Source: a bacterium (lineage in GTDB: Bacteria > Patescibacteriota > Minisyncoccia > Phycocordibacterales > UBA12445). Taken from it: DNA of 64,000 nt. A program made the position numbers and the translations under genes. The DNA is taken from positions 6,662-70,661 of the forward strand of contig JAUSIP010000001.1 of the NCBI GenBank assembly GCA_030648005.1, given 5' to 3'. Position 1 is the stretch's first letter, and each line of letters starts with the position of its first letter. Positions 8,038-55,061 of this stretch are shown here, in pieces. Under the pieces are notes generated by a model. The model had not been told where the DNA came from, did no database searches, and saw nothing but the letters and a program-made list of their open reading frames with translations.

Positions 8038-9135
8038 ATGGGTACAAAACTATCTGATACAGACGTAACAAGCTATCACTCAAGCTCAATGGAGCAATAC
8101 GCCAAGCACATAGCGGGCAGACCCGAAATGGGCGACTTAGTAGAGGCACCGGTCATCGGCATAGTGAAGCTTGCTCTATATGTAGATCTCAAGCCTTACG
8201 GTACAGGTGTTATTTATGGTAGAGAGTTCTTAAATGCCCGAGATGTGATCAAGAAGATCAACGTCGGCGATATCATCACAGCTAAAGTTGTGGAGACAGA
8301 AACACCGGAGGATGGCTATGTTGGGCTATCTTTGAAAGAGGCAAGACAGGCATTGGTTTGGGCCGAGGCCGAGAACTTGGTCAAAAATAAAACGGTTCTT
8401 GAGCTATCCATTAAGGATGCCAACAAGGGCGGTCTTATTCTCGAATGGCAGAATGTTGTTGGTTTCTTACCTGCATCACAGTTGAAGCCTGAACACTATC
8501 CTAGAGTCAACGACGGCGATAAGGATAGGATAATGATCGAGTTAAAGAAGTTGATTGGGCAGAAAATTTTTGTATCTATAATTGGAGCTAATCCTAAGGA
8601 GGGCAAACTAATCTTCTCAGAGAAGAGTGGGGCGCAAAAAGAAAGGACTGAGATGGTTGAGAAGTATACTGTTGGCGATACACTCGATGGTGAAGTTACA
8701 GGAGCTGTAGACTTCGGAATATTCGTTAAACTCGAAGATGGCCTAGAGGGCTTAGTACACATCTCCGAGATTGATTGGTCTCTGGTTGAGAACCCTAAGA
8801 AGCTCTTCAAAACTGGTGACAAAATTAAGGTTAAGGTCATTGAGATCAAAGATGGCAAGGTATCTCTGTCTATCAAGGCACTAAAGGAGAATCCCTGGAA
8901 AGCTGCGGAATCTAAATACAAAAAGGGTGCTAAAGTTACCGGTGTTGTTATCAAATACAACAAGCATGGTGCCCTAGTAAGCATCGAGGAGGGTGTAGCG
9001 GGTCTAGTACACATCTCAGCCTTTAACACAGAGGAGAAGATGAAGGAGAAACTCGAACTCGGCAAGTCATACAACTTCACCATCACACTCTTCGAGCCAA
9101 AAGAGCAGAAGATGACGCTGACACTAGTTGAATAG
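8038..9135 (+). CDS. rpsA: ribosomal protein S1-like (multiple S1 RNA-binding domains, short form)
   Basis: Four repeated S1-domain signatures (GxVxG...VGDxxxxKV). Confidence 0.75.
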   Translation: MGTKLSDTDVTSYHSSSMEQYAKHIAGRPEMGDLVEAPVIGIVKLALYVDLKPYGTGVIYGREFLNARDVIKKINVGDIITAKVVETETPEDGYVGLSLKEARQALVWAEAENLVKNKTVLELSIKDANKGGLILEWQNVVGFLPASQLKPEHYPRVNDGDKDRIMIELKKLIGQKIFVSIIGANPKEGKLIFSEKSGAQKERTEMVEKYTVGDTLDGEVTGAVDFGIFVKLEDGLEGLVHISEIDWSLVENPKKLFKTGDKIKVKVIEIKDGKVSLSIKALKENPWKAAESKYKKGAKVTGVVIKYNKHGALVSIEEGVAGLVHISAFNTEEKMKEKLELGKSYNFTITLFEPKEQKMTLTLVE

Positions 9136-9720
9136 ACTCATCGCCTTGTTGCGTCCTTCAGTAATGATGCACGAGACAGCTTCAATAATCTTTTTAGACT
9201 CTTTTTTAAGAAGGTCCAATTCTGCCTTCTTAAACTCGCCGAGTATTAACTTCTCCACATCAGCCTCCCCTACCGGTCTTTTTATTTTGCCTGATGGCGT
9301 CACTGGCGAGATACCAATCCTTATTCTTATAAACGCCTCAGTCTTGATATTTTGAATTATAGATTTAACACCATTGTGTCCGCCGGGACCTCTATTAAAA
9401 GAAATTCTAAAGCTACCGATTGGCAAGTCTAGATCATCATGTATTACTATCAATTCCTCAGCCGTTTTCTTCGAAGTTACTAACTTATTTAAACCCACAC
9501 CGGAATTATTCATGAAGTTATCCGGCCAAAGAAGAGTTAGCTTCTTGCTTCCTAATTTGCCGGTAGATATGAGTGACTTGGTCTTAACATCACTTTTCCA
9601 ATCTGCAAATTCTACATCAGAAGAGTTACGCAAAAATTCCGTAACAATCCGCCCGGTATTATGCCTCGTATTCTTATACTCTTCACCTGGATTTCCGAGT
9701 CCGACAATAATATATGACAT
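9124..9720 (-). CDS. pth: peptidyl-tRNA hydrolase
   Basis: MSYIIVGLGNPGEEYKNTRHNTG; start moved to the internal ATG 9720. Confidence 0.9.
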   Translation of the reverse strand: MSYIIVGLGNPGEEYKNTRHNTGRIVTEFLRNSSDVEFADWKSDVKTKSLISTGKLGSKKLTLLWPDNFMNNSGVGLNKLVTSKKTAEELIVIHDDLDLPIGSFRISFNRGPGGHNGVKSIIQNIKTEAFIRIRIGISPVTPSGKIKRPVGEADVEKLILGEFKKAELDLLKKESKKIIEAVSCIITEGRNKAMSLFN

Positions 9721-9751
9721 AGGTTTATTTATATCACCTCCACAAATTCTT

Positions 9752-9788
9752 GGCAAAAAGAAATCCCCCACCTGGCTGGTGGGGGGGG
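9752..9788 (-). terminator. hairpin terminator downstream of ORF 9813..10415
   Basis: CCCCCCCCACCAGCCAGGTGGGGG hairpin plus a T-rich tract on the minus strand. Confidence 0.5.
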
Positions 9789-9812
9789 CGGATGAACTAG
9801 GGCTGGTTGCTA

Positions 9813-10415
9813 CTAACCTTCATGTTCAGCCGGGATGGCATCGAGATCGTCGCCGTTCATGTTCGGCTTCGGCGGAATGGGGTACTTGCCAATCGAGAGT
9901 TCAGTATCCGTAATCGCCGACACGGGCTCGGCTTGGACTCCCGATGAAGGGGGTAGCGCGTACTTCTTGACGTAGAAGATCTGTTCGCCGGGGGTGTACT
10001 CATACTTGTCGAGCATGACCACCATCGGTTTCTCCTCGAAGACGACCCGATGATCGATATCCAACTCGTGGAGATTGGGACTGATCTCTCGCATCAAGGT
10101 CGAGATAACCTGACGCACCGGAATGTCCAGGCCGAACTCCTTCCAAATACGGCCGCCATCCGCCTTGACCACCCACTCCTTGAGGTTCAAGTAGTTGGCA
10201 CCGCGTTCGACCTGCTTCCACATGACGCGGAAGTAGTCGCCGGACCGCTGGAGCATCAAGTAGACGAAGTCCGACCGGAAGTCATGGTGACCTTGGAACT
10301 TCCGCACCCTGACCTCCAGACACATGACGGCCACCTTCTTGTCATCGGAGCCAGGTGGGACCATGTACTCGACCAGCGATGCAAGAGCCGAGGGCAGATC
10401 AATAGATGGTCTCAT
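9813..10415 (-). CDS. hypothetical protein, compositionally foreign (GC-rich)
   Basis: 200-aa ORF, visibly GC-richer than its flanks, with its own terminator, inserted between pth and lepB; no family recognised. Confidence 0.55.
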   Translation of the reverse strand: MRPSIDLPSALASLVEYMVPPGSDDKKVAVMCLEVRVRKFQGHHDFRSDFVYLMLQRSGDYFRVMWKQVERGANYLNLKEWVVKADGGRIWKEFGLDIPVRQVISTLMREISPNLHELDIDHRVVFEEKPMVVMLDKYEYTPGEQIFYVKKYALPPSSGVQAEPVSAITDTELSIGKYPIPPKPNMNGDDLDAIPAEHEG

Positions 10416-10581
10416 TGTCTTCTTCTCCTTCTCTACGCCTATTCTAGCGTAAGTTGGTTATTGTCTAGGAGCACACTTCTACCTACAAGTATAGCATATA
10501 TGAGATATTTGTCAATGGCCAGAAATCCGCCCAAATATCCCCTATTTGCATATAATCGATTTTTGTAGTAAAATAGGCGGA

Positions 10582-11214
10582 ATGAATGAAGAAAATATAG
10601 TAAATAGCCATGAGAATAAGGATGGAATTAGTCCGATGCCAGAAATAGAAGAGGAGGTATCTTGGGGTACTTTTATCAAAGATATCATCAAGTTCACCCT
10701 ACTCTCTTTGATAGTGGTCGTGCCAATACGAGTCTTCATCGCCCAGCCTTTTCTCGTAAGCGGAAGCTCTATGAAGCCAACTTTCCATGATGGCGAGTAT
10801 CTGATTGTGGACGAAGTCTCCTACTATCTCAGTAAACCAGCAAGAGGTGATGTGGTTGTTTTCAGATATCCCTATGATCGCTCCAAATATTTCATCAAGA
10901 GAATAATCGGCCTTCCAGATGAGACAGTAGAGATAGATCAGAGCAAAATATTCATAAAAAATAAAGAAAATCCGGAGGGGTTCCTTCTTAACGAATCATA
11001 TGTAACCGACAAGAACTGGGGCACCAGAAAGTCGAGCATGACACTCTCCAATAAAGAATATTTTGTCATGGGCGACAACAGAAACGCGAGTTCAGATTCT
11101 AGAGAGTGGGGAGCACTGGCAGACGAGTTCATCACCGGACATGTTAAATTAAGACTTCTGCCAATCACAAAAGTAGAAGTATCACCGGGAGCAGTAGAGA
11201 AGTTTACCAATTAA
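10582..11214 (+). CDS. lepB: signal peptidase I
   Basis: SGSSMKPTF...GDNRNASSDSREWG; start at ATG 10582 (RBS AGGCGGA); an upstream ATG at 10546 is possible. Confidence 0.88.
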   Translation: MNEENIVNSHENKDGISPMPEIEEEVSWGTFIKDIIKFTLLSLIVVVPIRVFIAQPFLVSGSSMKPTFHDGEYLIVDEVSYYLSKPARGDVVVFRYPYDRSKYFIKRIIGLPDETVEIDQSKIFIKNKENPEGFLLNESYVTDKNWGTRKSSMTLSNKEYFVMGDNRNASSDSREWGALADEFITGHVKLRLLPITKVEVSPGAVEKFTN

Positions 11215-11236
11215 TTAACCCTGTTTCTTACACATC

Positions 11237-14495: not shown

Positions 14496-15671
14496 ATGCC
14501 AAAAGTTAATCCAGAAATTGAAGCCTTCGCAAGAATAAAAGTTATCGGCGTCGGAGGATCGGGTGGTAACGCTATCAATCACATGATCGACTCCAAGATT
14601 GTCGGAGTTGAATTCGTGGCCATGAACACAGACACTCAGGATCTGCACAAATCTCTTGCTGAGAAGAAGATCCATATTGGTAAAAACTTAACCAAAGGAC
14701 GAGGGGCCGGTATGAATCCCGAGGTTGGGCAGCGAGCCGCCGAAGAGACGATTGAAGAGATACAAGGAATAACCAAGGGGGCCGATATGGTCTTCATAGT
14801 TTGCGGTATGGGTGGAGGTACGGGCACCGGCGCAGCACCAACCATTGCCAAGACTGCTAAAGAGCAAGGTGCTTTGACCATTGGAGTAGTCACTAAGCCC
14901 TTCTTCTTCGAGGGCGCTCAAAGAATGCGGCTAGCCAACGACGGCATAATGAACCTCAGGAATGAAGTTGACGCGATGATCGTCATACCAAACGATAGAC
15001 TTCTTGGGGTCATCGACAAAAGTACGACATTCCTCTCCGCATTTGCAATGTGCAACGAAGTATTGAGGCAGGCAGTAGAGGGTATCTCTAATCTAATAAC
15101 AATTCCTGGTATCATCAACGTCGACTTCGCAGACATTAGGACCATCATGCAGAACACAGGCTCAGCCCTTATGGGTATAGGTTCCGCTTCGGGCGAGAAT
15201 CGCGCCGAAGAAGCAGCTAGAGCAGCGATAAACTCCCCCCTCCTTGATCTTTCTATTCAGGGCGCAAAAGGTGTCCTATTTGCCGTATCCGGCGGGGATG
15301 ACATGACTATGTTTGAAATCCAGGAAGCAGCTAAGGTTATCACTGAGTCGATCGATCCAGACGCACGAGTCATCTTCGGCGCAATCAAGGATCCAAATCT
15401 CAAGAAAGACGAACTGAAGGTTACAGTTATCGCAACAGGATTCGCCAACGAAACCTTTGGCAAGAGTGATGAGATGATCAGGAGGCCAAAAATAAACGAG
15501 GTGAGCGAACCGGTGGCAAAGTCCTTCGTCCAAGAATTAAAGAATACATTTAAAAAAGAAGAGCGAATAGAAAACATTTCTAACATTTCGGACATGAACA
15601 TAGGCATGGACAAATCTGAAGATGAGAACTGGTCTTCAGTGCCGGCCTTCCTTCGTCGCGCCAAGAAATAA
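14496..15671 (+). CDS. ftsZ: cell division GTPase FtsZ
   Basis: [13 protein letters not shown] and the tubulin signature [16 protein letters not shown]. Confidence 0.95.
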
Positions 15672-15681
15672 AAAACTCAAA

Positions 15682-15780
15682 TTTAGCGCATGACTTTGTC
15701 GAGAACTCCGTTTATTTCTCACAGTACCGACTAAGTACAGTTTCAAAATAATACTCGTTCTCTCCTCGTCCTGCATCTAA
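15682..15780 (-). repeat. conserved ~100-nt 3'-UTR repeat element, copy A (sense strand minus, 3' of the dehydrogenase gene)
   Basis: Plus-strand TTAGCGCATGACTTTGTCGAG...CAGTACCGACTAAGTACAG...CTGCATCTAA aligns with the copies at 17826 and 33706. Confidence 0.75.
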
Positions 15781-15804
15781 ATTTGAGATTTTTATAGACT
15801 ATCG

Positions 15805-17094
15805 TTACTGCCCGATACCTTCATAGTGAAAGCCCAGTGCTTCGGCTTCGGCTTTTTTGTATATATTTCTGGCATCTACAATATTGGCACGGCCGATATT
15901 TTTCTTTATCTGTAGAAGTGTGATCTCCCTAAACTGCTTCCACTCGGTCATGATAACCAAACAATCCGCATCCTTTAACATACCTAGGGAATTATTACTG
16001 AATGTTATTTGTGGAAAAAGCTGTCTACCATTCGCTTCAGCCACCGGATCAAAACAGACCACCTCGGCGCCTGCACTCAGAAGATCCTCGACAAGCCTAA
16101 CTGCCGGAGATTCGCGAAGATCATCCGTCTCCGGCTTGAAGGCAAGTCCCCAAACCGCCACCTTCTTGCCATGTAAACCCTTCACCAGTCCCACAACCTT
16201 AGCTAAAACTCGATCACCTTGTCTTTTATTTATCTCTTCAGTTACATTCAGCAGAGGTAGTTCTGTGTCATACTTCCTCGCTGTGCTGATGAGGCCCTTA
16301 ACATCCTTAGGAAAGCACGATCCACCATATCCGGGGCCGGCATTCAAGAATGCGCGCTTGCCAATCCTCTGATCAAGCTTCATACCGAGTGCCACTTCAT
16401 CAACATTAGCTCCTATCTTCTCACAGAGTTCTGAGAGACTGTTAATGAACGATATGGAGACAGCAAGATAAGCGTTGGAGGCATACTTGATCATCTCGGC
16501 TGTTCTGACATCAGTGAAGAGTATCTCGGTTTTTATAAGTGAATACAGCTCCTGCATTATCTTCTTGGCACGGCCTAGTGGTACTCCGATAACAACTCTG
16601 TCTGGCTTCAAAAAATCAGATATCGCCTGGCCTTCACGCAGAAACTCGGGGTTTGAGACCACGTCGAATTTTACTTTCGCATGTTTCTCTAAGATCTTGG
16701 CAACTCTCTCCCCTGTCCCAACAGGGACCGTAGACTTATTTATAACAACAGCATACTTACGCATATTTCTTCCGATCTCTTCAGCCGCACGCTCAATATA
16801 TTTTGTCTCCACAGTCCCATCTTTTTTAGAAGGAGTGCCGACCGCTATAAAAATAACATCCGCATGTGCTATACCCTCCTCTGTATTATTGAAAAATTTT
16901 ATCCGTCCCTTCTTTATATTTTTAACAAGCAACGTCTCTATTCCCGGTTCGTATATCGGCGAGATCCCCTTCTTCAAATCCTCTATCTTCTGCTTATCTA
17001 TATCAACACAAGATACTTCATAACCCAGTTCAGCAAAGCATACCCCAGTCACCAAACCCACATACCCTGTACCCATTACACTAATTCTCTTCAT
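15805..17094 (-). CDS. UDP-glucose/GDP-mannose 6-dehydrogenase family enzyme
   Basis: MKRISVMGTGYVGLVTGVCFAELG Rossmann N-terminus; length and family pattern. Confidence 0.85.
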   Translation of the reverse strand: MKRISVMGTGYVGLVTGVCFAELGYEVSCVDIDKQKIEDLKKGISPIYEPGIETLLVKNIKKGRIKFFNNTEEGIAHADVIFIAVGTPSKKDGTVETKYIERAAEEIGRNMRKYAVVINKSTVPVGTGERVAKILEKHAKVKFDVVSNPEFLREGQAISDFLKPDRVVIGVPLGRAKKIMQELYSLIKTEILFTDVRTAEMIKYASNAYLAVSISFINSLSELCEKIGANVDEVALGMKLDQRIGKRAFLNAGPGYGGSCFPKDVKGLISTARKYDTELPLLNVTEEINKRQGDRVLAKVVGLVKGLHGKKVAVWGLAFKPETDDLRESPAVRLVEDLLSAGAEVVCFDPVAEANGRQLFPQITFSNNSLGMLKDADCLVIMTEWKQFREITLLQIKKNIGRANIVDARNIYKKAEAEALGFHYEGIGQ

Positions 17095-17173
17095 ATCAAA
17101 ATTATAACAAAGGTTAAATCATTTTGGTTATAAAAAAATCCCCCCGCCATAGCGAGGGGCACTTCGTCAAATA

Positions 17174-17650
17174 TTATTTGAGTAAAATTCTTTCAAGATC
17201 AGGCTTCCAGCGGGTGAGGAACTCGGTGATGATGTGTCCGCCGTCGTCGCCAGCAGTGGCACCATAGTCGATGAATTGATATCCGCAACTTGTACGACGT
17301 ATATTGTGCCGATGGTACGAATGGAAGTCCACACCGAAGAGATATTGGTATGCATCTTCCGGCAAGCTTTTCAAGGTCGCCGCCCATTCTTCCTTGTCAG
17401 GCTCAACACCGTAGTTACGGCGAACGATACTGAAGAGTCCGAGGCTAAAATACACCGTAGCAAGGTAACCTGCTTTGTTCGCAAGCCAACACTTGTACTC
17501 ACTCCAATTTTGCTGCATTGCGGCGAAGACCAGATCTCGGACTGTTTTAAAATTTCGGCATTTGTAGAGGATCTTCTGCATGTTCGGGATCTTGATGACT
17601 AGGGGCCCAATCAGGATTGCCGCCCGAAAACTTCCATAGTGTATCTCCAT
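17174..17650 (-). CDS. hypothetical protein (moderately GC-rich)
   Basis: 158-aa ORF, terminator 17135..17170, no family recognised. Confidence 0.45.
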   Translation of the reverse strand: MEIHYGSFRAAILIGPLVIKIPNMQKILYKCRNFKTVRDLVFAAMQQNWSEYKCWLANKAGYLATVYFSLGLFSIVRRNYGVEPDKEEWAATLKSLPEDAYQYLFGVDFHSYHRHNIRRTSCGYQFIDYGATAGDDGGHIITEFLTRWKPDLERILLK

Positions 17651-17825
17651 GAATTTTCAACTCCTTATCTTCCATAAAAAGTATAACAAAAAAAGCCGAC
17701 TAAGTCAATAGCTGGCTTTTTCTTACGCCCCGAGCCGAGTTTTAAATCCTAACGTGCCAGTAAAGGTAAACTTTGTTGCACTGGTATTTTAAAACTCAGC
17801 TCGAAGCTCGAACTCGGACTATCCA

Positions 17826-17923
17826 CTTAGCGCATAACTTTGTCGAAAGCTCCATTTGCTTCTCAATGTACTGTTAGTACATCTTCGTCGCAAGATTCGC
17901 TTTCTTCGCGTTCTGCATCTAAG
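17826..17923 (-). repeat. conserved ~100-nt 3'-UTR repeat element, copy B (3' of the helicase gene)
   Basis: CTTAGCGCATAACTTTGTCGAAAGCTCC...TGTACTGTTAGTACA...GCGTTCTGCATCTAAG. Confidence 0.8.
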
Positions 17924-17941
17924 TGTCTAAGTCCTTTGTGT

Positions 17942-19180
17942 TTAGCGTCTGTATGTTTTGTACTGCGAAGCTGGGCGGCCTGAATTTGAGTGACTAGAAT
18001 TACTTCTTGCAAAACGATTGAATTTTGGTCGTTCAGGTCTGTCCACCTCATTGACTCCACTGACACTTATACGTTTTGGTGGTAGTACAGGATTTGGCTT
18101 CAGCGCCAAACTCTTCCTCATTAGTCTCTCTATCTCCTTCACATCATAACGCTGGCCATGCTCGGCGAAAGAGATCGCCTTACCCATCTTACCAGCTCGG
18201 CCTGTTCGGCCTATTCGGTGAACATAATCCTCCGGATTGTCGGGTAGATCGAAGTTTACAACCAGCTCGATATCTGAGACGTCGATACCTCGAGCAGCAA
18301 TATCTGTAGCCACAAGCACTCGATGCCTACCACTCTTGAATCCATCAAGCGCTGCCTTCCTCTGCGAGAGAGACTTGTTGGAGTGGATGTCAGCTGAAGT
18401 GTGCCCCATATCTTTGATCTTATGAGAGATCTTCTTTGCTCCATGCTTAGTTCGTGAGAAAACCAAGACGGTACCCTTATGATCAGAAAGCATTTTATCC
18501 AGTAGTTGGATCTTCTCGTCTTTTGATATCATGTACAGTTCTTGCGAAATTCTCTCAGTCGTACTACCGGCTTCAGCTATCTGCACAGTCGCAGGCGACT
18601 TCATGTAAGTATTAGCTATCGCTCTAATCTTCGGAGGCATAGTCGCGGAGAAGAGCAGAGTCTGATGTTCTTTTGGTACAGATGACAAAATCTTTTTTAT
18701 CTGGGGTTCGAATCCCATATCAAGCATTCTGTCAGCTTCATCTAATACTAATATCGCTACAGTTCCTAAATTAATAGTTTTGTGCTGTAAGTGATCATTC
18801 AGTCTTCCTGGTGTTGCGACGATCACATGAGGCTTCTGGCGGATCATTGAGAGTTGTCCGCCCATAGGTGCGCCTCCAACAAGAATAGCTGTGCGCAATC
18901 CAAGCGGGCTACCGATTCTTTTCAAAGTCTCCTCAACCTGCATGGCAAGCTCTCGGGTTGGTAAGACTATTAAGCCTGTAGCACCATTCTTCTTAGCCAG
19001 CAACTGGATCATTGGCAAACCGAAAGCCAGCGTCTTACCTGTACCTGTCTGGGCAATACCTATAACGTCCTTGCCTGTCAGGACAATAGGAATAGACTTC
19101 TCCTGAATAGGAGTCGGTTTTGTGAGGCCATTCTTCTCCAGAATAGCCAAAAGCAATGGTGATATACCTAGATTATTCAT
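17942..19180 (-). CDS. DEAD-box ATP-dependent RNA helicase
   Basis: Q-motif TPIQ, AQTGTGKT, DEAD, SAT. Confidence 0.92.
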   Translation of the reverse strand: MNNLGISPLLLAILEKNGLTKPTPIQEKSIPIVLTGKDVIGIAQTGTGKTLAFGLPMIQLLAKKNGATGLIVLPTRELAMQVEETLKRIGSPLGLRTAILVGGAPMGGQLSMIRQKPHVIVATPGRLNDHLQHKTINLGTVAILVLDEADRMLDMGFEPQIKKILSSVPKEHQTLLFSATMPPKIRAIANTYMKSPATVQIAEAGSTTERISQELYMISKDEKIQLLDKMLSDHKGTVLVFSRTKHGAKKISHKIKDMGHTSADIHSNKSLSQRKAALDGFKSGRHRVLVATDIAARGIDVSDIELVVNFDLPDNPEDYVHRIGRTGRAGKMGKAISFAEHGQRYDVKEIERLMRKSLALKPNPVLPPKRISVSGVNEVDRPERPKFNRFARSNSSHSNSGRPASQYKTYRR

Positions 19181-19336
19181 ATTTTTTCTATCTGACCCGA
19201 TATCTGTAATGGGTCAGTAGAATTGACACATAAGTTCGAGTCCTAATATTACCTGTAAGTATACACTATTGAGTTTATTTTGTCAAGCAAATAAAAACAG
19301 CCCCTATTTTAGGGGCTGGCAACGATTTCGGCGCAC

Positions 19337-19876
19337 TTACAGTTTTTTTTGAAGAAATTCCCTGAGCTTCTTCTCGTTGGTGATTGGTTCAACTCTAACA
19401 GTCTCCGGATAGATAGGATGACCCGCTTCGTCCTCCTCGTAATCCTTATGTCCATCAATATCTTCCTTACTCAAACCAGCCTGCATAAGAAACTCTTCAA
19501 TGCTCTCTTTGGTATAGCCAGACCATGGAAGATCGGAGTTAGCATACATCAACCTTCCGCACTTGAGGATATTTGAGTAAATAGCATCAGCGTTCTGAAG
19601 AACTCTCTGGCGCAAGATCTCGTGTTCAAGATTTTTGATCCTCTTGTTGTAAGTTGTCTTACCGGCATGCCTTTCGTTGTATTGCGCGATCTGATCATCT
19701 GTGAAGCATCGTTCTAGGAGTTCAGCGAGCTTCCTGACCGGATCCTTGATCAGCTTGAAGCCACGTCGCTCAACAACCTCGACATAAGCTTCCAGATCTG
19801 CCCATGCATCCACGAACCGCTCCTCGATCTCTTCTGTATCTTCCTGAGACAAAACTTCGACTTCTGATGTACTCAT
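19337..19876 (-). CDS. hypothetical acidic protein
   Basis: Start at the internal ATG 19876 with RBS GGAGGT; terminator hairpin 19297..19315; no family recognised. Confidence 0.5.
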   Translation of the reverse strand: MSTSEVEVLSQEDTEEIEERFVDAWADLEAYVEVVERRGFKLIKDPVRKLAELLERCFTDDQIAQYNERHAGKTTYNKRIKNLEHEILRQRVLQNADAIYSNILKCGRLMYANSDLPWSGYTKESIEEFLMQAGLSKEDIDGHKDYEEDEAGHPIYPETVRVEPITNEKKLREFLQKKL

Positions 19877-20011
19877 TTGGGACCTCCTCTTTATTGACAA
19901 ACGGCTCTTTTCCAATAGCAAGATAGCATTAAAAAGTCCGAGTGGCAACTATGTTCGAAGTCGGTCTTCGTGCATCTTAAACTACAAAATATAGCTTAGA
20001 ATTTTGGCAAT

Positions 20012-20047
20012 AAAAAAACCGGTTGCAAACAGAGTGTCTGCAACCGG
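20012..20047 (-). terminator. rho-independent terminator of the E2-E1-Ubl operon
   Basis: Perfect 9-bp stem CCGGTTGCA/TGCAACCGG followed by a T7 run on the minus strand, 23 nt after the Ubl stop. Confidence 0.8.
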
Positions 20048-20069
20048 GCGTGGTATTCACTATGAGCTC

Positions 20070-20309
20070 CTAAGAACCTTGCGGGCGTTCGTGAACTGCG
20101 ACGATCTTCGATGCTGAAGTCACGCGCGTTTCAGGCGTGGCAGGCTTGCCGTCGACCGACAGGTTCTTCTTGTCGAGGCTGACTCCAGCCTCCTTGAGCA
20201 CCTCGGCGAGCGTGGCGCTCGCTTCGATAGTGACCGTCTTGGTGATCGGTTTTCCCGAAGTGGGGACGACCTCAAGTTGAACTTCGAAAGTCTTCTTGGT
20301 CTTGGTCAT
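20070..20309 (-). CDS. small ubiquitin-like (beta-grasp) protein, C-terminus ...HERPQGS
   Basis: 79 aa; predicted beta-beta-alpha-beta-beta pattern; last gene of the operon with the E1-like gene; RBS GAGGGGG; GC-rich. Confidence 0.5.
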   Translation of the reverse strand: MTKTKKTFEVQLEVVPTSGKPITKTVTIEASATLAEVLKEAGVSLDKKNLSVDGKPATPETRVTSASKIVAVHERPQGS

Positions 20310-20353
20310 TTTCCTTCACCCCCTCTTTTTTGTCTTGTTTTTTTTGTAAAGAA

Positions 20354-20992
20354 CTATACTTCTTGAAAGTACCCGCACAACATCCTCAGATGCCGCTTGA
20401 ATTTACTCTGTTTGAAGAACATTGTCAAGGCAGCGCAGGCGACGTTGGCCGCGGTACTGCTGATGTGTATCGCACCATGGTTGCCGCACATAGACCGGGT
20501 AGCTTCTACCGAGGAATATCGGATGAAATTCTCATAATAATCCACGTCATCCTTATCGCACGTGCGAATAGCGAACACTTCGATATATTCAGCGTTGATT
20601 CTCGTATCAACGAAGATCCCAACGAGAGGATTGTCCTTAACAGCCTTCCAGATGAGCTGGCGCGCCTCCATAGTATCAACACAAGCAACGACCGCGGTTT
20701 TGAGCGGTTCACCGTTGTACATCTTGGGTATAACCCTAATCTGAACTCCTGACGCTTCTTCCACGATCTCACTTAACGCTTCGACCTTCAGCCTCAAAAT
20801 ATGCTTCTGCCGGAACTCCGACATCGGCACGTTATGCGAGGCCACTTCGTCGCCATCCAAAACCGTAAGATCAGCGCACCCTTCTCTGGCGAGCATGATA
20901 GTGAGTCTACTGCCGACTGAACCGGCGCCAATGATAGTAACAGGTCGGAAGAGATCCGGATCAACGATCTTATTCTGTGCATCGAAATTCAT
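20354..20992 (-). CDS. E1-like ThiF/MoeB-family adenylyltransferase
   Basis: VTIIGAGSVGSRLTIMLAREGCADLTVLDGDEV Rossmann/ATP-binding signature; start ATG 20992 overlaps the upstream gene's stop (ATGA). Confidence 0.75.
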   Translation of the reverse strand: MNFDAQNKIVDPDLFRPVTIIGAGSVGSRLTIMLAREGCADLTVLDGDEVASHNVPMSEFRQKHILRLKVEALSEIVEEASGVQIRVIPKMYNGEPLKTAVVACVDTMEARQLIWKAVKDNPLVGIFVDTRINAEYIEVFAIRTCDKDDVDYYENFIRYSSVEATRSMCGNHGAIHISSTAANVACAALTMFFKQSKFKRHLRMLCGYFQEV

Positions 20993-22413
20993 TGTCCTAT
21001 GCAAGGCACACCTCCTTCGTCCAGTATCACCTTGATCGGCCATTCAGCGATCTTGTGCAGAGCCGTCTGATCTTCGTAACCTTCGAAAAGCCAACGAGTG
21101 AAGTAGCCGATGCCGTCTGCGTATCGATGCTCCTTGATCGCATCCTTGATCGCCGTGCCGGCATTGCCAAAACAGGGCGTGCCTTCTTTATTGATATGAG
21201 GATGAGGAACTCCTTCCGGATGAAACCGATCGAGACTCCAGATATAGAAGTCGCCGTTTCTATGGATTGCGAAAGCGAACCTGCCAAGCTGATGAGTATT
21301 GCCCGCATTAGTAATGTCAGCTCCGATAGTAGTAACGCGGATCATATCTTCAGCAAGCGATAGTTCCGATACATATGGATTCGAACGGATCCTGCGCCAC
21401 TGCCCCTTGAGAGATCTGAACAATTCATCTTTGGGCAGGGCATTGCTTACTGTCTTACTCAAGCGCTGAAGATTGAAACATTCACGCTCATTGATAGCCA
21501 GAGTCATCCTCAGATCTTCAATCTCTTGTTGTATCTTCTGCACCTCTCTGTCTATGCCGCCACTGACGGTGCTTATCCATTTTGTTGTAACGTCGACAAA
21601 CCTCTTGCGATTCAGACGGAGCATTTTGTCAGATGGCTTAGCTCCACCTTGCAGAGCCTGATAACGGCGTAGGGTCACAGCCAGAGCATTATCCAAAATT
21701 TTCAAACTAGTAAGAGAATTGAAAAATTCAACCACGCAAAACAGAAAATACCAGTTATTGCCAACTATCTGCGCAAGATCGTTCTCCCCGTCGCCGACGA
21801 ACTCCCCTCTTCCGGGAGTACCGGAGAAGGTCAGAACACCGTTGCCTTCTTTGGTATCCAACTGAAGGTCGAAGGCGCGGCGTAGATACTTGCTCTTTGA
21901 ATATCCGGGCGAATAGCTCCAAGGGAAAATATTGATCAGATTAGGCTTGTCGGGTAGCGGAGGCCTACCTATATCGCGTTTCTCGGCGTAAAAATCTATG
22001 TCCAATCCTCCGGCAAGCCTAGAGAAATTCTCTAAGATAATTCTGATGCTGGAATAGGGAGCTTCTTCGATCGTCTTCTTATCGTCTTCCTTCTCTGACA
22101 AGGGGATGATCCTGATATTTCCGGTCTTGATCCCAACGTACGGAACAGTGCGATTGCCCCACTTGGCATTCTTGGCATTAATGACATTTGGGTAAGGAGC
22201 TTGCCCGATACCGACAATCAGAAGAACGTCAATGAAGGTCATCCTCGCTTCCGCCACATTCGCGCACTGGAAGATGTAAGCATCGAGCTCGTATGGCCCT
22301 ACTCGTACTGTCCGCCTCTTGAAAGGGATCCCCTTCTTTGTGAACTCTTGAGTATGAGGCTCAGCCACGAGAGCCGGCAAGGCGAAAATAGGTGTTTTCA
22401 GTCCGGGAACCAT
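20989..22413 (-). CDS. E2-like (UBC-fold) protein with ~330-aa N-terminal domain of unknown function
   Basis: C-terminal HPHINKEGTPC matches the UBC active site HPNINSNGSIC with identical spacing; RBS AAGGAGG; first gene of the operon. Confidence 0.6.
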   Translation of the reverse strand: MVPGLKTPIFALPALVAEPHTQEFTKKGIPFKRRTVRVGPYELDAYIFQCANVAEARMTFIDVLLIVGIGQAPYPNVINAKNAKWGNRTVPYVGIKTGNIRIIPLSEKEDDKKTIEEAPYSSIRIILENFSRLAGGLDIDFYAEKRDIGRPPLPDKPNLINIFPWSYSPGYSKSKYLRRAFDLQLDTKEGNGVLTFSGTPGRGEFVGDGENDLAQIVGNNWYFLFCVVEFFNSLTSLKILDNALAVTLRRYQALQGGAKPSDKMLRLNRKRFVDVTTKWISTVSGGIDREVQKIQQEIEDLRMTLAINERECFNLQRLSKTVSNALPKDELFRSLKGQWRRIRSNPYVSELSLAEDMIRVTTIGADITNAGNTHQLGRFAFAIHRNGDFYIWSLDRFHPEGVPHPHINKEGTPCFGNAGTAIKDAIKEHRYADGIGYFTRWLFEGYEDQTALHKIAEWPIKVILDEGGVPCIGQ

Positions 22414-22527
22414 CTCTGCCTCCTTTGGCCCTCCGTAGCTTTATGCGTAGGGGGCCTTTATTTCGTACAGTGTCAAGGAGCACTCAAACCGATGAGATAA
22501 TATCAGGAATAATTGATTTAGTCAATG

Positions 22528-22614
22528 CGGAGGTGGGAGGATTTGAACCTCCGATACCCTTTCGGGTATGCCAGTTTTCGAAACTGGTGATTTCAACCAC
22601 TCACCCACACCTCC
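22528..22614 (-). tRNA. tRNA-Ser (anticodon CGA), type II with long variable arm
   Basis: Hand fold: acceptor GGAGGTG/CACCTCC, anticodon loop TTCGAAA, T-arm GGAGGTTCAAATCCTCC, discriminator G, no encoded CCA. Confidence 0.85.
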
Positions 22615-22685
22615 AAGTTTAAGCGTTTAAATACTAACAGCATTTTGCATTTTTGACAAAATTTAGTATTATAACGAAACCTAAC

Positions 22686-22793
22686 GGCCCTATCGTTCCC
22701 GATTTTATTACGATTTCGTTACAGCGAAATCTCCATAAAATCGAGGATCCTCGACCCTGTGGGGTCGGGACTATCGGTTAGGACACGGCCTTT
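22686..22793 (+). pseudogene. orphan tRNA-Glu 5' half (to the anticodon loop) interrupted in the D-arm by a MITE
   Basis: GGCCCTATCGT + 75-bp element + CTATCGGTTAGGACACGGCCTTT is identical to positions 1-34 of tRNA-Glu at 22931; no 3' half follows. Confidence 0.7.
22697..22771. repeat. miniature inverted-repeat element, copy 2 (TCCCGATTTT...GGGGTCGGGAC)
   Basis: Shares its ends and the internal ATCGAGGATCC core with the copies at 2723 and 53662. Confidence 0.7.
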
Positions 22794-22915
22794 GAGAGGT
22801 GAGGATGGGGTAAGGGGTCCCATCCGCAAGACCTTTTGAGGTAGTTTGCGAGCTAGTGAAGCAAAATATCCAAAAGGTGTACTGCTCCCGTAGGGAGGGA
22901 AACGCAGTGAGGCAT
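22794..22915 (+). ncRNA. conserved structured element X between the orphan 5' half and tRNA-Glu
   Basis: GAGGTGAGG-hairpin-CGCAAGACCTTTTGAG...AATATCCAAAAGGTGTACTG-hairpin. A homolog lies upstream of tRNA-Gly (33021..33122) and shows compensatory hairpin changes. Confidence 0.5.
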
Positions 22916-23002: not shown

Positions 23003-23139
23003 TTGCGAAGCAAGGAGACTAAGTGAATGAACTGCTTCATTCACGCCAGAGAGTCGAAGCCCGATTGAGATAGTTTATGATTCCGAGTTTATCGAGGAAG
23101 AAATAAAATATCCAATTGGGGTACTGTTCCTGTAAGGAA

Positions 23140-23158
23140 CGACTCTCTGTAGGGTCAT
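23140..23158 (+). repeat. direct orphan copy of the tRNA-Glu 3' end (CGACTCTCTGTAGGGTCAT)
   Basis: 19-nt identity with 22984..23003; preceded by the GGGTACTG-hairpin motif. Confidence 0.8.
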
Positions 23159-33020: not shown

Positions 33021-33156
33021 TAAATCTCATCCTTACAGGATCTGTACACCTTTTGGATATATTCTCGCACAAACTCAAATATATCTCAAAAGGTCTTGCG
33101 GCGCTAAGCGCGCCTCACCTCAGGAAGGTCGCATCCTACCACTGAACTATACCCGC
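33021..33156 (-). ncRNA. orphan tRNA 5' half (GCGGGTATAGTTCAGTGGTAGGATGCGACCTTCC) fused to conserved structured element X, immediately upstream of tRNA-Gly
   Basis: Minus-strand sequence TGAGGTGAGG-GGCGCGCTTAGCGCC-GCAAGACCTTTTGAG...AATATATCCAAAAGGTGTACAG-ATCCTGTAAGGAT is homologous to 22794..22915. Confidence 0.55.
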
Positions 33157-53735: not shown

Positions 53736-53810
53736 TCCTCGGTAGCTCAGTGGTAGAGCAGCTCGCTGTTAACGAGTTGGTCGTAGGTTCGAATCCTACC
53801 CGGGGAGCCA
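53736..53810 (+). tRNA. tRNA-Asn (anticodon GTT), CCA encoded
   Basis: Hand fold: acceptor TCCTCGG/CCGGGGA, loop CTGTTAA, T-arm GTAGGTTCGAATCCTAC. Confidence 0.85.
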
Positions 53811-53948
53811 AGTGAGCGAAGCGAACGCTCCACGAGCAAGCAAACTGCTTTGCTTGCGTGGTAGGATTCGAAAAGGTTCTCCGTTATCCGATGGCAATCG
53901 GATCGGAAACCTGTACCGTTCATGTAATGAAAGAATCCTTCTAAAAAA

Positions 53949-54566
53949 ATGAAAAACCCCAAAGTAATAATCTACGACAACGACGGAATGATCTGCCATA
54001 GTGGCCGATTTAGCGACAGTTATTCTAAGGAGTTTGGGATTGAGATGGATATAATGAGTCCCTTTTTCGAAGGACCATTTAAAAACTGTCTCGTTGGAAA
54101 AGCAGACCTGAAAGAGGAGTTAGAAAAAGTTTTAGATATATGGAACTGGAAAGGGACAGCCAACCAGCTTCTTGATTACTGGTTTTCAGTAGGAAGCACG
54201 CTCGACGAGAAAGTTTTCCCTACTATTTCAAAATTTAAAGATCAAGGTCTAATAGTATGTCTGGCAACTAATCAGGAAAAATATCGAAAAGAATATTTAG
54301 TTACAAAATTTGGATACGACAAAGTATTTAATGAAATCTTTTCTTCTGCAGAACTAGGCGCTTATAAGAACAGCGAGAAGGGTCTCCAAAAAACTTTCGA
54401 CATCTTGAAAGATAAATATGGCATTGAAGATAGAGACGAGATCATGTACTGGGATGACCGAGAAGGAAATGTTGAACATATAAATCAGTTTGGTATGAAC
54501 GGTCAGCATTATAAAAATTATGAGGAGTTTAGGGATGTAATGGCCGGTCTTGGCTACTTAGTTTAA
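53949..54566 (+). CDS. HAD-superfamily hydrolase
   Basis: IIYDNDGMI (motif I), LATNQ, WDD. Confidence 0.6.
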   Translation: MKNPKVIIYDNDGMICHSGRFSDSYSKEFGIEMDIMSPFFEGPFKNCLVGKADLKEELEKVLDIWNWKGTANQLLDYWFSVGSTLDEKVFPTISKFKDQGLIVCLATNQEKYRKEYLVTKFGYDKVFNEIFSSAELGAYKNSEKGLQKTFDILKDKYGIEDRDEIMYWDDREGNVEHINQFGMNGQHYKNYEEFRDVMAGLGYLV

Positions 54567-54570
54567 TTTT

Positions 54571-54972
54571 ATGCAAAATAAAACAACTCACGAATCATTT
54601 GTTTTAAGACAATCCACACTTCCAAGTGCAGGAATCGGAGTGATTACCTTACACGACATAGCCAAGGGTACATATATGGAGCTTTTTCGTGATGGTTTTG
54701 AGGAGGAAATTAGGGATGAGTCTGATGTGCCGAAGCCACTCAGGGCATACTGTCTCTATCAGGGTAATGGCAAGATCTTATGTCCAAAAATGTTCAATCG
54801 TATGGATATCGGAAATTATCTCAATCACTCAGAGAACTGGAATATGGTCTATGAAAAAGGCAGGGGTTACTTTGCTTCTCGAGATATTAGAGCCGGAGAG
54901 GAACTCTTTGCCAACTATAGAGATCTGGGAGAGCCCGAAGACCAGAGAGAGGAGTATTACAAGGTGCATTAA
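54571..54972 (+). CDS. SET-domain protein (putative lysine methyltransferase)
   Basis: NHSENWN and GEELFANY motifs. Confidence 0.6.
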   Translation: MQNKTTHESFVLRQSTLPSAGIGVITLHDIAKGTYMELFRDGFEEEIRDESDVPKPLRAYCLYQGNGKILCPKMFNRMDIGNYLNHSENWNMVYEKGRGYFASRDIRAGEELFANYRDLGEPEDQREEYYKVH

Positions 54973-55043
54973 TACTTTGACCTTCAGCATTTCTTGGAGC
55001 AGAGCGAGTACGATGCGAAAGGTGTACTGTTCCCGTAATGAAA

Positions 55044-55061
55044 GAATCCTACCCGGGGAGC
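55044..55061 (+). repeat. direct orphan copy of the tRNA-Asn 3' end (GAATCCTACCCGGGGAGC)
   Basis: 18-nt identity with 53791..53808; preceded by the GGTGTACTG-hairpin motif. Confidence 0.8.

Follow-up and report, generated by a model that had tools for sequence, protein, structure and literature searches.

A three-gene operon beside tRNA-Ser in a Patescibacteria genome is probably an accessory ubiquitin-like conjugation module with an intrinsic GC excess

To characterise an apparent genomic island in a metagenome-assembled genome of the Patescibacteriota, we analysed a stretch of 64,000 nucleotides (assembly GCA_030648005.1, contig JAUSIP010000001.1, positions 6,662 to 70,661 of the forward strand; hereafter the window), concentrating on positions 19337–22614, which an earlier note (the original prediction) had described as a compositionally foreign island of about 3 kb bounded by a tRNA-Ser gene. 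Our reading, to which we assign a probability of roughly 0.65, is that the core of this segment is an accessory ubiquitin-like conjugation module. It would comprise an E2-like protein, a ThiF-type E1 and a ubiquitin-like modifier (Ubl), and would belong to a family without a curated model, with an intrinsic GC content and an arrival that predates the split from the closest sampled relative (locus L082), rather than being an island at tRNA-Ser. The segment is made of two parts and not of one island, namely the three-gene operon (hereafter the cassette) and an unrelated, lineage-specific acidic open reading frame (ORF). The earlier label of an E2/E1/Ubl operon holds for the three co-directional genes at 20070–22413, and is supported by homology, fold, motif and context. 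The operon has the following features:

22497–22525, minus strand: promoter-like site, TTGACT, 17 nt, TG-TATTAT (consensus scan, 10/12 matches with an extended −10 TG; a consensus match only)
20989–22413, minus strand: E2-like gene, 474 amino acids (aa) (AlphaFold2 model, Foldseek, profile match, invariant residues)
21172–21174, minus strand: codon of the invariant Cys414, the predicted E2 active site (read from the sequence)
20354–21004, minus strand: ThiF-type E1 gene, 216 aa (Pfam ThiF, PADLOC and PDB matches)
20070–20309, minus strand: Ubl gene, encoding a 79-aa beta-grasp protein (SAMP2/PF1061 profile match)
20019–20047, minus strand: intrinsic terminator closing the operon, a 13-bp stem followed by T7 (read from the sequence)

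The E2 call is made on fold, motif and context, and not on a significant family match; together these support, at the level of a structural model, an E2-like protein with a UBC-type C-terminal domain. The 474-aa protein consists of an N-terminal domain (approximately aa 1–255), a coiled-coil hairpin (aa 269–343) and the C-terminal UBC-like domain (aa 344–462). Its AlphaFold2 model, built from a 70-sequence alignment, has a predicted local distance difference test score (pLDDT) of 91.7 and combines an alpha/beta N-terminal region with a C-terminal domain in the order helix, beta-meander, HPH/Cys loop, helices. Among solved structures, the best Foldseek match of the C-terminal domain was UbcH7 (probability 0.84, TM 0.46), with RWD folds next, and E2s had also headed the fold matches for an earlier, weaker model. 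A profile of the same domain, searched against the whole PDB, matched only UBE2L3 chains, in an alignment running from the N-terminal helix through the active-site loop. Here, 'HPHiskegspC' of the family is aligned with 'HPNIDEKGQVC' of UBE2L3, Asn being replaced by His. The motif is formed by H404-P405-H406, with Cys414 eight residues past H406 and aligned to the catalytic cysteine of UbcH7, the Cys of its HPN-x7-Cys motif. H404, H406, C414, G416 and Y446 are invariant in 127 diverse relatives. The protein has no match in Pfam, NCBIfam, PADLOC or PHROGs, none of the 70 family members scanned has a Pfam domain, and a search of the PDB with the full-length sequence was discarded, returning coiled coils only. 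As a separate observation, the best fold matches in BFVD were four uncharacterised viral proteins of 420–474 aa (A0A8S5PR93, E = 4.7e−4; A0A516LW79; A0A516M3P8; A0A516L9P6); judging from the models, these may be phage proteins distantly related to the E2-like protein.

The E1 matches Pfam ThiF (PF00899) at 4e−12 (46.2 bits against a cut-off of 28.1), the Cap2-type E1-E2 model of PADLOC at 2.5e−12 and NCBIfam 6A-MBL cap2_3 at 2e−13, the last far below its cut-off. In the PDB, ThiF comes first (1e−10), followed by UBA5, MccB, Cap2 and BubCD. At 216 aa and with a single ThiF domain, the window E1 falls within the range of its homologues (214–223 aa); its likely start is the TTG at 21004, 6 nt after GGAGG, the alternative being an in-frame upstream ATG at 21043. 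In 18 homologues, no variation is seen at the residues of the GxGxxG motif (G26, G28, G31) or at D50, D110 and R115. Past the adenylation core there is an invariant C173-G-x-H motif, and we infer, by position only, that Cys173 is equivalent to ThiF Cys184 or UBA5 Cys250.

For the Ubl, a profile of 20 homologues matches the SAMP2 and PF1061 structures (E = 3.7e−5), with ISG15 and SUMO weaker, while the Pfam and NCBIfam SAMP2 models match weakly and under their cut-offs, and PADLOC and PHROGs gave no match. The alignment has the ThiS/SAMP pattern, but with Gly-Ser in place of Gly-Gly, such that the modifier has neither a terminal Gly-Gly nor a terminal Gly. The C-terminus reads ...ERPQ-Gly78-Ser79, and Gly-Ser followed by a stop is invariant in 20/20 aligned homologues and in every complete copy. 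The precursor of UFM1 ends in Gly-Ser-Cys and is trimmed.

The three genes recur as a unit. The order E2-like, E1, Ubl was found in every locus in which the contig extends past the E2-like gene, about 25 besides the window (sample: 5 close loci, 1 distant locus and 23 metagenome loci). In the window the operon is tightly packed, the start of the E1 gene overlapping the end of the E2-like gene by 16 nt, and an overlap of these two genes is present in 7/7 loci with called genes. Clustering of all neighbours across loci returned no recurrent fourth cassette gene, only lineage-specific synteny; a 304-aa ORF behind the cassette of locus L081, considered as a relative of the acidic ORF, proved unrelated to that family. 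Among 5.8 billion proteins, only 10 belong to the close family of the E2-like protein, while a profile search of 1.84 billion cluster representatives gave 2133 matches at E ≤ 1e−3 and 152 at E ≤ 1e−30, most of the 2133 being full length (440–550 aa). Repeating the word-indexed search with the 70-sequence profile added one protein only. The loci of distant members range in GC from 42 to 66%.

The 42 proteins flanking the cassette in about 20 loci are mostly housekeeping (RuvB, RF2, SerRS, H+-PPase, cyclophilin, TsaE, a sigma factor, an M23 peptidase), with one transposase and PADLOC matches that are weak and generic. Neither a JAB domain nor a DUF6527 protease is present in the cassette or in these 42 proteins. 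No relative was found in IMG/VR (two pattern sets), in GenBank phages or in PLSDB plasmids, and a literature search returned no description of the cassette or of any E1/E2/Ubl system in Patescibacteria. The cassette is an accessory module with a patchy distribution.

We then consider the composition of the segment, on which the claim of a foreign island had been built. GC content is 44.4% in the window and 48.3% in 19337–22614, which places the segment in the top 1% of same-size windows, and the operon (20070–22413), at 49.5%, is the highest of all windows of its size. Broken down by gene, GC is 48.8% in the E2-like gene, 49.7% in the E1 gene and 57.1% in the Ubl gene; the acidic ORF (44.8%), the spacers (38–44%) and the helicase (45.8%) are at background. 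The excess therefore comes entirely from the three co-directional genes and does not span the segment. Of the earlier estimate of 50–57% against 40–45%, the elevation itself stands, but it is only 48.3% against 44.4%, and 57% is reached only in the 240-bp Ubl gene. The helicase, taken for low-GC core, is at 45.8% not lower than the window.

Tetranucleotide distance was largest in the window at 19501–22500 (z = 3.3), with 53–56 kb a close second (z = 2.8). The sliding-window comparison that had been proposed as a check accordingly identifies the operon as the top outlier for both GC and tetranucleotides, but as a narrower and weaker one than claimed. At third codon positions (GC3) the Ubl gene is the sole outlier (0.70, z = 3.0; E1 z = 1.3; E2-like z = 0.8), and several other 1-kb windows also reach 50% GC.

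The same shift accompanies the cassette elsewhere. Of 15 independent loci, 14 have a cassette richer in GC than its flanks (sign test p = 0.001), with differences reaching 13.6 points. In three loci (L093, L098 and L101) the cassette occupies one common syntenic site; flank proteins are 60–80% identical, and cassette proteins diverge in the same rank order as the flanks (E1 51–65%, E2-like 32–45% identical). The single site and the shared rank order of divergence indicate vertical descent of the cassette in these three loci, as far as sequence comparison can tell, and GC3 is 0.67–0.86 in the cassette versus 0.40–0.60 in the flanks. The moderately high GC, located mostly at third codon positions, is best read as an intrinsic, maintained trait of the cassette family and not as a fading donor signature. 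Because the excess is family-wide and is kept under vertical inheritance, composition provides no evidence of recent transfer. The term 'compositionally foreign' is therefore not supported: the shift of +5 points is real, but the same shift goes with the cassette in 14/15 loci and under vertical inheritance. Within the cassette, the GC3 excess follows the order Ubl > E1 ≥ E2-like in L093, L098 and L101, and also in L081 and L089. High expression was considered as a cause of high GC3 and rejected, the ribosomal L10 and L7/L12 genes of L081 having a GC3 of 0.45–0.49 versus 0.73 in its Ubl gene.

Comparison of genomes gave a partial history of the locus. ORFs at 15–27 kb of the window encode FtsZ, UDP-glucose dehydrogenase (UGDH), orf158, the DEAD-box helicase, the acidic ORF, the cassette, TrhO, TsaD, orf176 and ValRS. 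Relatives of the helicase include Candidatus Vogelbacteria, Uhrbacteria and other Patescibacteria groups. In the closest sampled relative, L082 (helicase 82.5% identical), the order is cassette, a homologue of the acidic ORF, extra genes, helicase, a homologue of orf158, and UGDH. Since L082 carries the cassette in the same gene order, the cassette was at the locus before the two lineages split. The cassette proteins of the window and L082 are 56% (E2-like), 73% and 78% identical, below the value for the helicase. The L082 contig holds only 673 bases upstream of its cassette, and no tRNA gene occurs in them.

In two further relatives, L001 (helicase 75% identical) and L002 (68%), gene order follows that of the window from the helicase to FtsZ and farther on. 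Both are without cassette, UGDH and orf158, and upstream of the helicase neither has anything in common with the window. The cassette was found within 10 kb of the helicase in 0/80 species representatives, and in L081 a cassette 60–75% identical lies between prfB and ftsE. No relative shows a clean empty site at the cassette position. The presence/absence pattern is mixed: the cassette is accessory, absent from L001 and L002 and from the vicinity of the helicase in 80 species, but it is present in L082. In the scenario we propose, the cassette would have entered, or moved to, a variable region upstream of the DEAD-box helicase before the window genome and L082 diverged.

Two side observations concern the same region. 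In L017, a distant Patescibacteria relative, TsaD, tRNA-Glu(UUC) and the DEAD-box helicase are adjacent (8144–11227), in orientations as in the window; between these genes the window has, in addition, tRNA-Val, trhO, tRNA-Ser, the cassette and the acidic ORF. This single case hints at an expanded interval that holds tRNA-Ser, cassette and acidic ORF. At the opposite end of the helicase, UGDH (15805–17094) and orf158 (17174–17650) stand between FtsZ and the helicase, and in L001 and L002 FtsZ abuts the helicase; by this comparison the UGDH/orf158 segment (15671–17942) is a second lineage-specific insertion flanking the helicase.

The remaining features of the segment are the tRNA gene and the acidic ORF:

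22527–22614, minus strand: tRNA-Ser(CGA) gene (ARAGORN; Rfam tRNA model, 56.7 bits)
19337–19876, minus strand: acidic orphan ORF, 179 aa (separate transcription unit)
19298–19318: terminator of the acidic ORF (read from the sequence)

Both ARAGORN and Rfam place the tRNA-Ser gene where the original prediction had it, and the prediction was also correct that no integrase is present, as seen from the ORFs of the window and their domain matches. Its model of the segment was an island acquired at tRNA-Ser that has kept the GC of its donor and has since lost its integrase. The 3' end of tRNA-Ser does face the operon, which ranks first in the window for both GC and tetranucleotide deviation, and the cassette is patchy and found in differing contexts among related genomes. 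Moreover, tRNA-Asn and tRNA-Glu in the window carry att-like 3'-end repeats, so integration at tRNAs seems to occur in this genome. For tRNA-Ser itself, no second copy of its 22-nt 3' end was found in the window at ≤3 mismatches or in a repeat scan, and in L082, whose cassette occupies this locus too, the upstream bases available contain no tRNA. Of 17 independent loci, about 3 have a tRNA adjoining the cassette, on one side or the other; the chance expectation is about 9% (a rough figure that assumes about 45 tRNA genes per about 1000 genes). Integration at tRNA-Ser finds no support in these three results. The family-wide and persistent GC excess is a further argument against the model, and the divergence of the cassette proteins between the window and L082 (56–78%, against 82.5% for the helicase) gives no sign of a recent arrival. 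We therefore regard acquisition at tRNA-Ser as improbable: the tRNA adjoins the operon but is not shown to have been a site of integration, and we do not read the operon as a decayed tRNA-Ser island.

Nor does the acidic ORF behave as part of an island. As had been described, it has its own ribosome-binding site (AGGAGG) and terminator (19298–19318) and an acidic product (isoelectric point 4.9), and it also has its own promoter-like site. Its sole database match is itself, with no curated-family match in Pfam, NCBIfam, PADLOC or PHROGs. In L082 a 297-aa ORF occupies the corresponding position, and its C-terminal part shares 32% identity with the acidic ORF, which is absent beside the cassette in all other loci compared. 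With its background composition, its standing as a lineage-specific orphan and no link to the cassette elsewhere, its inclusion in the island is not upheld, and its composition is a point against the tRNA-Ser model as well.

The opposite view, which takes the composition signal for chance or ordinary variation between genes and the operon for a normal cluster of core genes, can appeal to the GC3 of the E2-like and E1 genes, only 0.8–1.3 standard deviations above the window mean, and to the other 1-kb windows at 50% GC. Chance is contradicted by the upward shift in 14/15 independent loci, and a core cluster by a close family of only 10 members in 5.8 billion proteins and by the lack of a cassette near the helicase in 80 related species; we consider this view less credible than even the tRNA-Ser model, and very improbable.

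Having set these two accounts of the locus aside, we return to the conjugation module. In the proposed mechanism, the steps of which are drawn from homology and invariant residues, the 216-aa E1, which probably forms a homodimer in complex with the E2-like protein, would adenylate the C-terminus of the 79-aa modifier. The modifier would pass to the invariant Cys173 in the crossover loop of the E1 and next, as a thioester, to Cys414 in the UBC-like domain of the 474-aa protein, whose conserved N-terminal domain and coiled coil would select the target, replacing an E3. Either Ser79 itself would be activated, or one residue would be trimmed by a host enzyme. Because no dedicated peptidase is encoded, tagging would be irreversible or would be reversed by a host protease.

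Several results weigh against this interpretation. The Foldseek E-value to UbcH7 is 0.18 and non-significant, and the profile E-value to UBE2L3, 0.034, is marginal. No match to Pfam UQ_con or Prok-E2_A-E was obtained for the E2-like protein at E ≤ 1 or for 70 family members at E ≤ 0.01, and the N-terminal 255 residues match nothing in a fold search or a PDB sequence search. We know of no precedent among conjugated Ubls for a terminal Ser instead of Gly, which could mean a different chemistry. No target, E3 or deubiquitinase was identified for the cassette. On the side of its history, the persistent GC3 excess of the cassette is not common to the ribosomal protein genes in L081, and synteny upstream of the helicase is conserved in no relative; because of the latter, the event at this locus may be either a gain in the lineage of the window and L082 or a loss in L001 and L002.

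As for the role of the module, anti-phage defence like that of Bil, with the Ubl tagging phage structural proteins, is compatible with the conjugation mechanism, and on analogy we see it as possible although rather unlikely. Characterised bacterial E1/E2/Ubl operons (Bil and type II CBASS, the cyclic-oligonucleotide-based anti-phage signalling system) act in phage defence, and this is suggested for Bub (10.1101/2024.11.21.623953). The best hidden Markov model matches of the E1 are Cap2-type E1 domains, the distribution of the cassette is sporadic and its genomic position varies. The E2-like protein also evolves far faster than the flanks (45% versus 80% identity between L093 and L098; 56% versus 82.5% between the window and L082). 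The surroundings point the other way: the flanking proteins are housekeeping with weak, generic PADLOC matches and include no CapW, CapH/P or other regulator, neither the E2-like protein nor the Ubl has a PADLOC match, and no deubiquitinase is encoded. In addition, at least one lineage has passed the cassette on stably at a single site, and no carriage by phages or plasmids was seen in IMG/VR, GenBank phages or PLSDB. Analogy and the rapid change of the E2-like protein thus suggest a role in defence, which genomic context does not support.

The modifier could alternatively be a sulfur carrier, on which the E1 would make a thiocarboxylate for cofactor synthesis or tRNA thiolation, with no conjugation. 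Its nearest relatives are SAMP2/ThiS-like proteins, the E1 is nearest to ThiF, and two genes of tRNA modification, trhO (rhodanese family) and tsaD, are found within 3 kb of the cassette in the window. That neighbourhood is, however, specific to the window genome; no sulfurtransferase or cofactor-synthesis gene recurs near the cassette, and the Ubl terminus is Gly-Ser, not Gly-Gly. A sulfur-carrier role is unlikely, with a much smaller chance than defence, because of the invariant UBC-like, E2-type partner with its HPH-Cys motif, which sulfur-carrier pathways do not use.

Ubiquitin-like conjugation operons are already known in bacteria; the E2-like family of the cassette has neither a curated model nor a description in the literature searched. 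The architecture of the cassette differs from Bil, Bub, type II CBASS and archaeal sampylation. Bil (bacterial ISG15-like, BilABCD) shares with it separate Ubl, E2 and E1 genes in one operon and cysteine chemistry, predicted in the case of the cassette. Bil encodes no E3, and its E2 is thought to select the target itself (10.1101/2024.11.21.623953). Bil always has a JAB/JAMM peptidase, which neither the cassette nor any flank contains, and its E1 is multi-domain, in contrast to the single 216-aa ThiF domain here; the cassette E2 has a 340-aa N-terminal extension, and its Ubl is a single SAMP2-like beta-grasp domain ending in Gly-Ser. Type II Bub (6E.2 / DUF6527) resembles the cassette as a three-gene operon typically without a JAB peptidase and in the tight coupling of E2 and E1, by fusion in Bub and by translational overlap in the cassette, but it encodes the DUF6527 serine protease BubE, which is absent from the cassette and its flanks, and its E1 and E2 lack catalytic cysteines and use oxyester chemistry, whereas Cys173 (E1) and Cys414 (E2) are invariant in the cassette.

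With type II CBASS the cassette has in common an E1 that scores best to Cap2-type domains and an E2 and E1 that form one unit. That system consists of a CD-NTase, an effector, the Cap2 fusion and Cap3, with no Ubl; the cassette has no CD-NTase, effector or Cap3, but has a dedicated beta-grasp Ubl and separate E2 and E1 polypeptides. Its neighbours in the window are tRNAs, the helicase and an orphan ORF, and only the E1 domain is Cap2-like. In archaeal SAMP2/UbaA sampylation the modifier is the one most similar to that of the cassette and the E1 is likewise a minimal ThiF/MoeB-type enzyme; however, sampylation uses no E2 and SAMPs end in Gly-Gly, where the cassette has an E2-like protein and Gly-Ser. 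Finally, the segment resembles tRNA-linked islands in its adjacent tRNA 3' end, atypical composition and accessory content, and differs from them in having no integrase, no flanking direct repeat, a tRNA link not conserved in L082, and a composition that is intrinsic to the cassette.

Separately from the cassette, small ThiF-like E1 genes (phrog_15670) were seen in the crAss-like phage cr111_1 (NC_055880.1, locus L112, 1418–5319) and in Flavobacterium phage FpV4 (L113, 1548–5709). Their products are 27–28% identical to the window E1 at 80–89% coverage and are encoded directly behind two overlapping proteins of about 420 aa, one of which is annotated with a metalloprotease domain in cr111_1. 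A relationship of these phage proteins to the E2-like family was rejected (hhalign probability <1%), and the genes may represent a separate phage E1 module.

Other observations relate to tRNA genes elsewhere in the window. The last 18 nt of tRNA-Asn (53791–53808, GAATCCTACCCGGGGAGC) are repeated exactly at 55044–55061. The two copies bracket a 1.25-kb segment of low GC (approximately 39–40%), the second-strongest tetranucleotide outlier, which contains a 205-aa ORF without a Pfam match and a 133-aa SET-domain ORF (Pfam, 2e−9). These features give 53736–55061 the look of a small element inserted at a tRNA, bearing att-like repeats and lacking an integrase. A motif of about 65 nt (...AAATATCCAAAAGGTGTACTGTTCCCGTAAGGA...) occurs four times, at 22836–22902 (+), 23078–23145 (+), 33026–33089 (−) and 54990–55048 (+), with nhmmer E-values from 8e−13 to 4e−17, and there is a weak further copy at 53907–53937. 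None of the four copies is more than about 200 nt away from a tRNA gene or fragment, and two are directly followed by a displaced tRNA 3' fragment (tRNA-Glu, 23140–23158; tRNA-Asn, 55044–55061). A longer version of the motif forms an approximately 18-bp stem with some compensatory changes, as seen in two sequences only. The motif has no Rfam match and was not found in the loci of relatives that were compared.

Two orphan tRNA 5' halves, at 22685–22793 (+) and about 33119–33152 (−), break in the anticodon loop; neither is called by ARAGORN or Rfam. Both run into the same insert, consisting of GAGGTGAGG, a hairpin and CCGCAAGACCTTTTGAG..., and then into the 65-nt motif. One is a tRNA-Glu 5' half, identical in 23/23 and 13/13 nt to the intact gene 171–245 nt downstream and itself split by a 74-nt hairpin insertion (22697–22770). 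The second orphan, located upstream of tRNA-Gly(CCC), is similar to the 5' half of a tRNA-Gly(UCC).

Taken in its full extent, the cassette would stand for a large undescribed family of at least 2000 clusters, all from uncultivated bacteria, with a minimal, Cys-dependent three-gene conjugation system that has no deubiquitinase. It would have its own HPH-Cys lineage of E2 with a novel target-recognition domain and a Gly-Ser modifier whose Ser is activated or trimmed, and would be kept in housekeeping contexts of reduced Patescibacteria genomes with a lasting GC3 excess. We offer this broader picture tentatively, at somewhat less than even odds. The relatives of bacterial ubiquitination (type II CBASS, Bil and Bub) were only recently shown to conjugate proteins, and each family brought unexpected chemistry. 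The cassette would add a fourth architecture, and the smallest so far, consisting of a single-domain E1, an E2 that includes a candidate substrate-recognition domain of its own, and one beta-grasp modifier; this modifier ends in a residue other than glycine, and no peptidase is dedicated to the system. For the scanning of genomes, these results advise caution, a local GC shift beside a tRNA being insufficient as evidence for an integrated island. That the cassette stays GC3-rich in low-GC genomes under vertical descent is an evolutionary puzzle, and if true, the long-kept GC3 excess suggests an unrecognised selective constraint on the DNA or RNA of the cassette. Its occurrence in ultra-small, host-dependent Patescibacteria would be of particular interest, as each gene retained in these organisms is informative.

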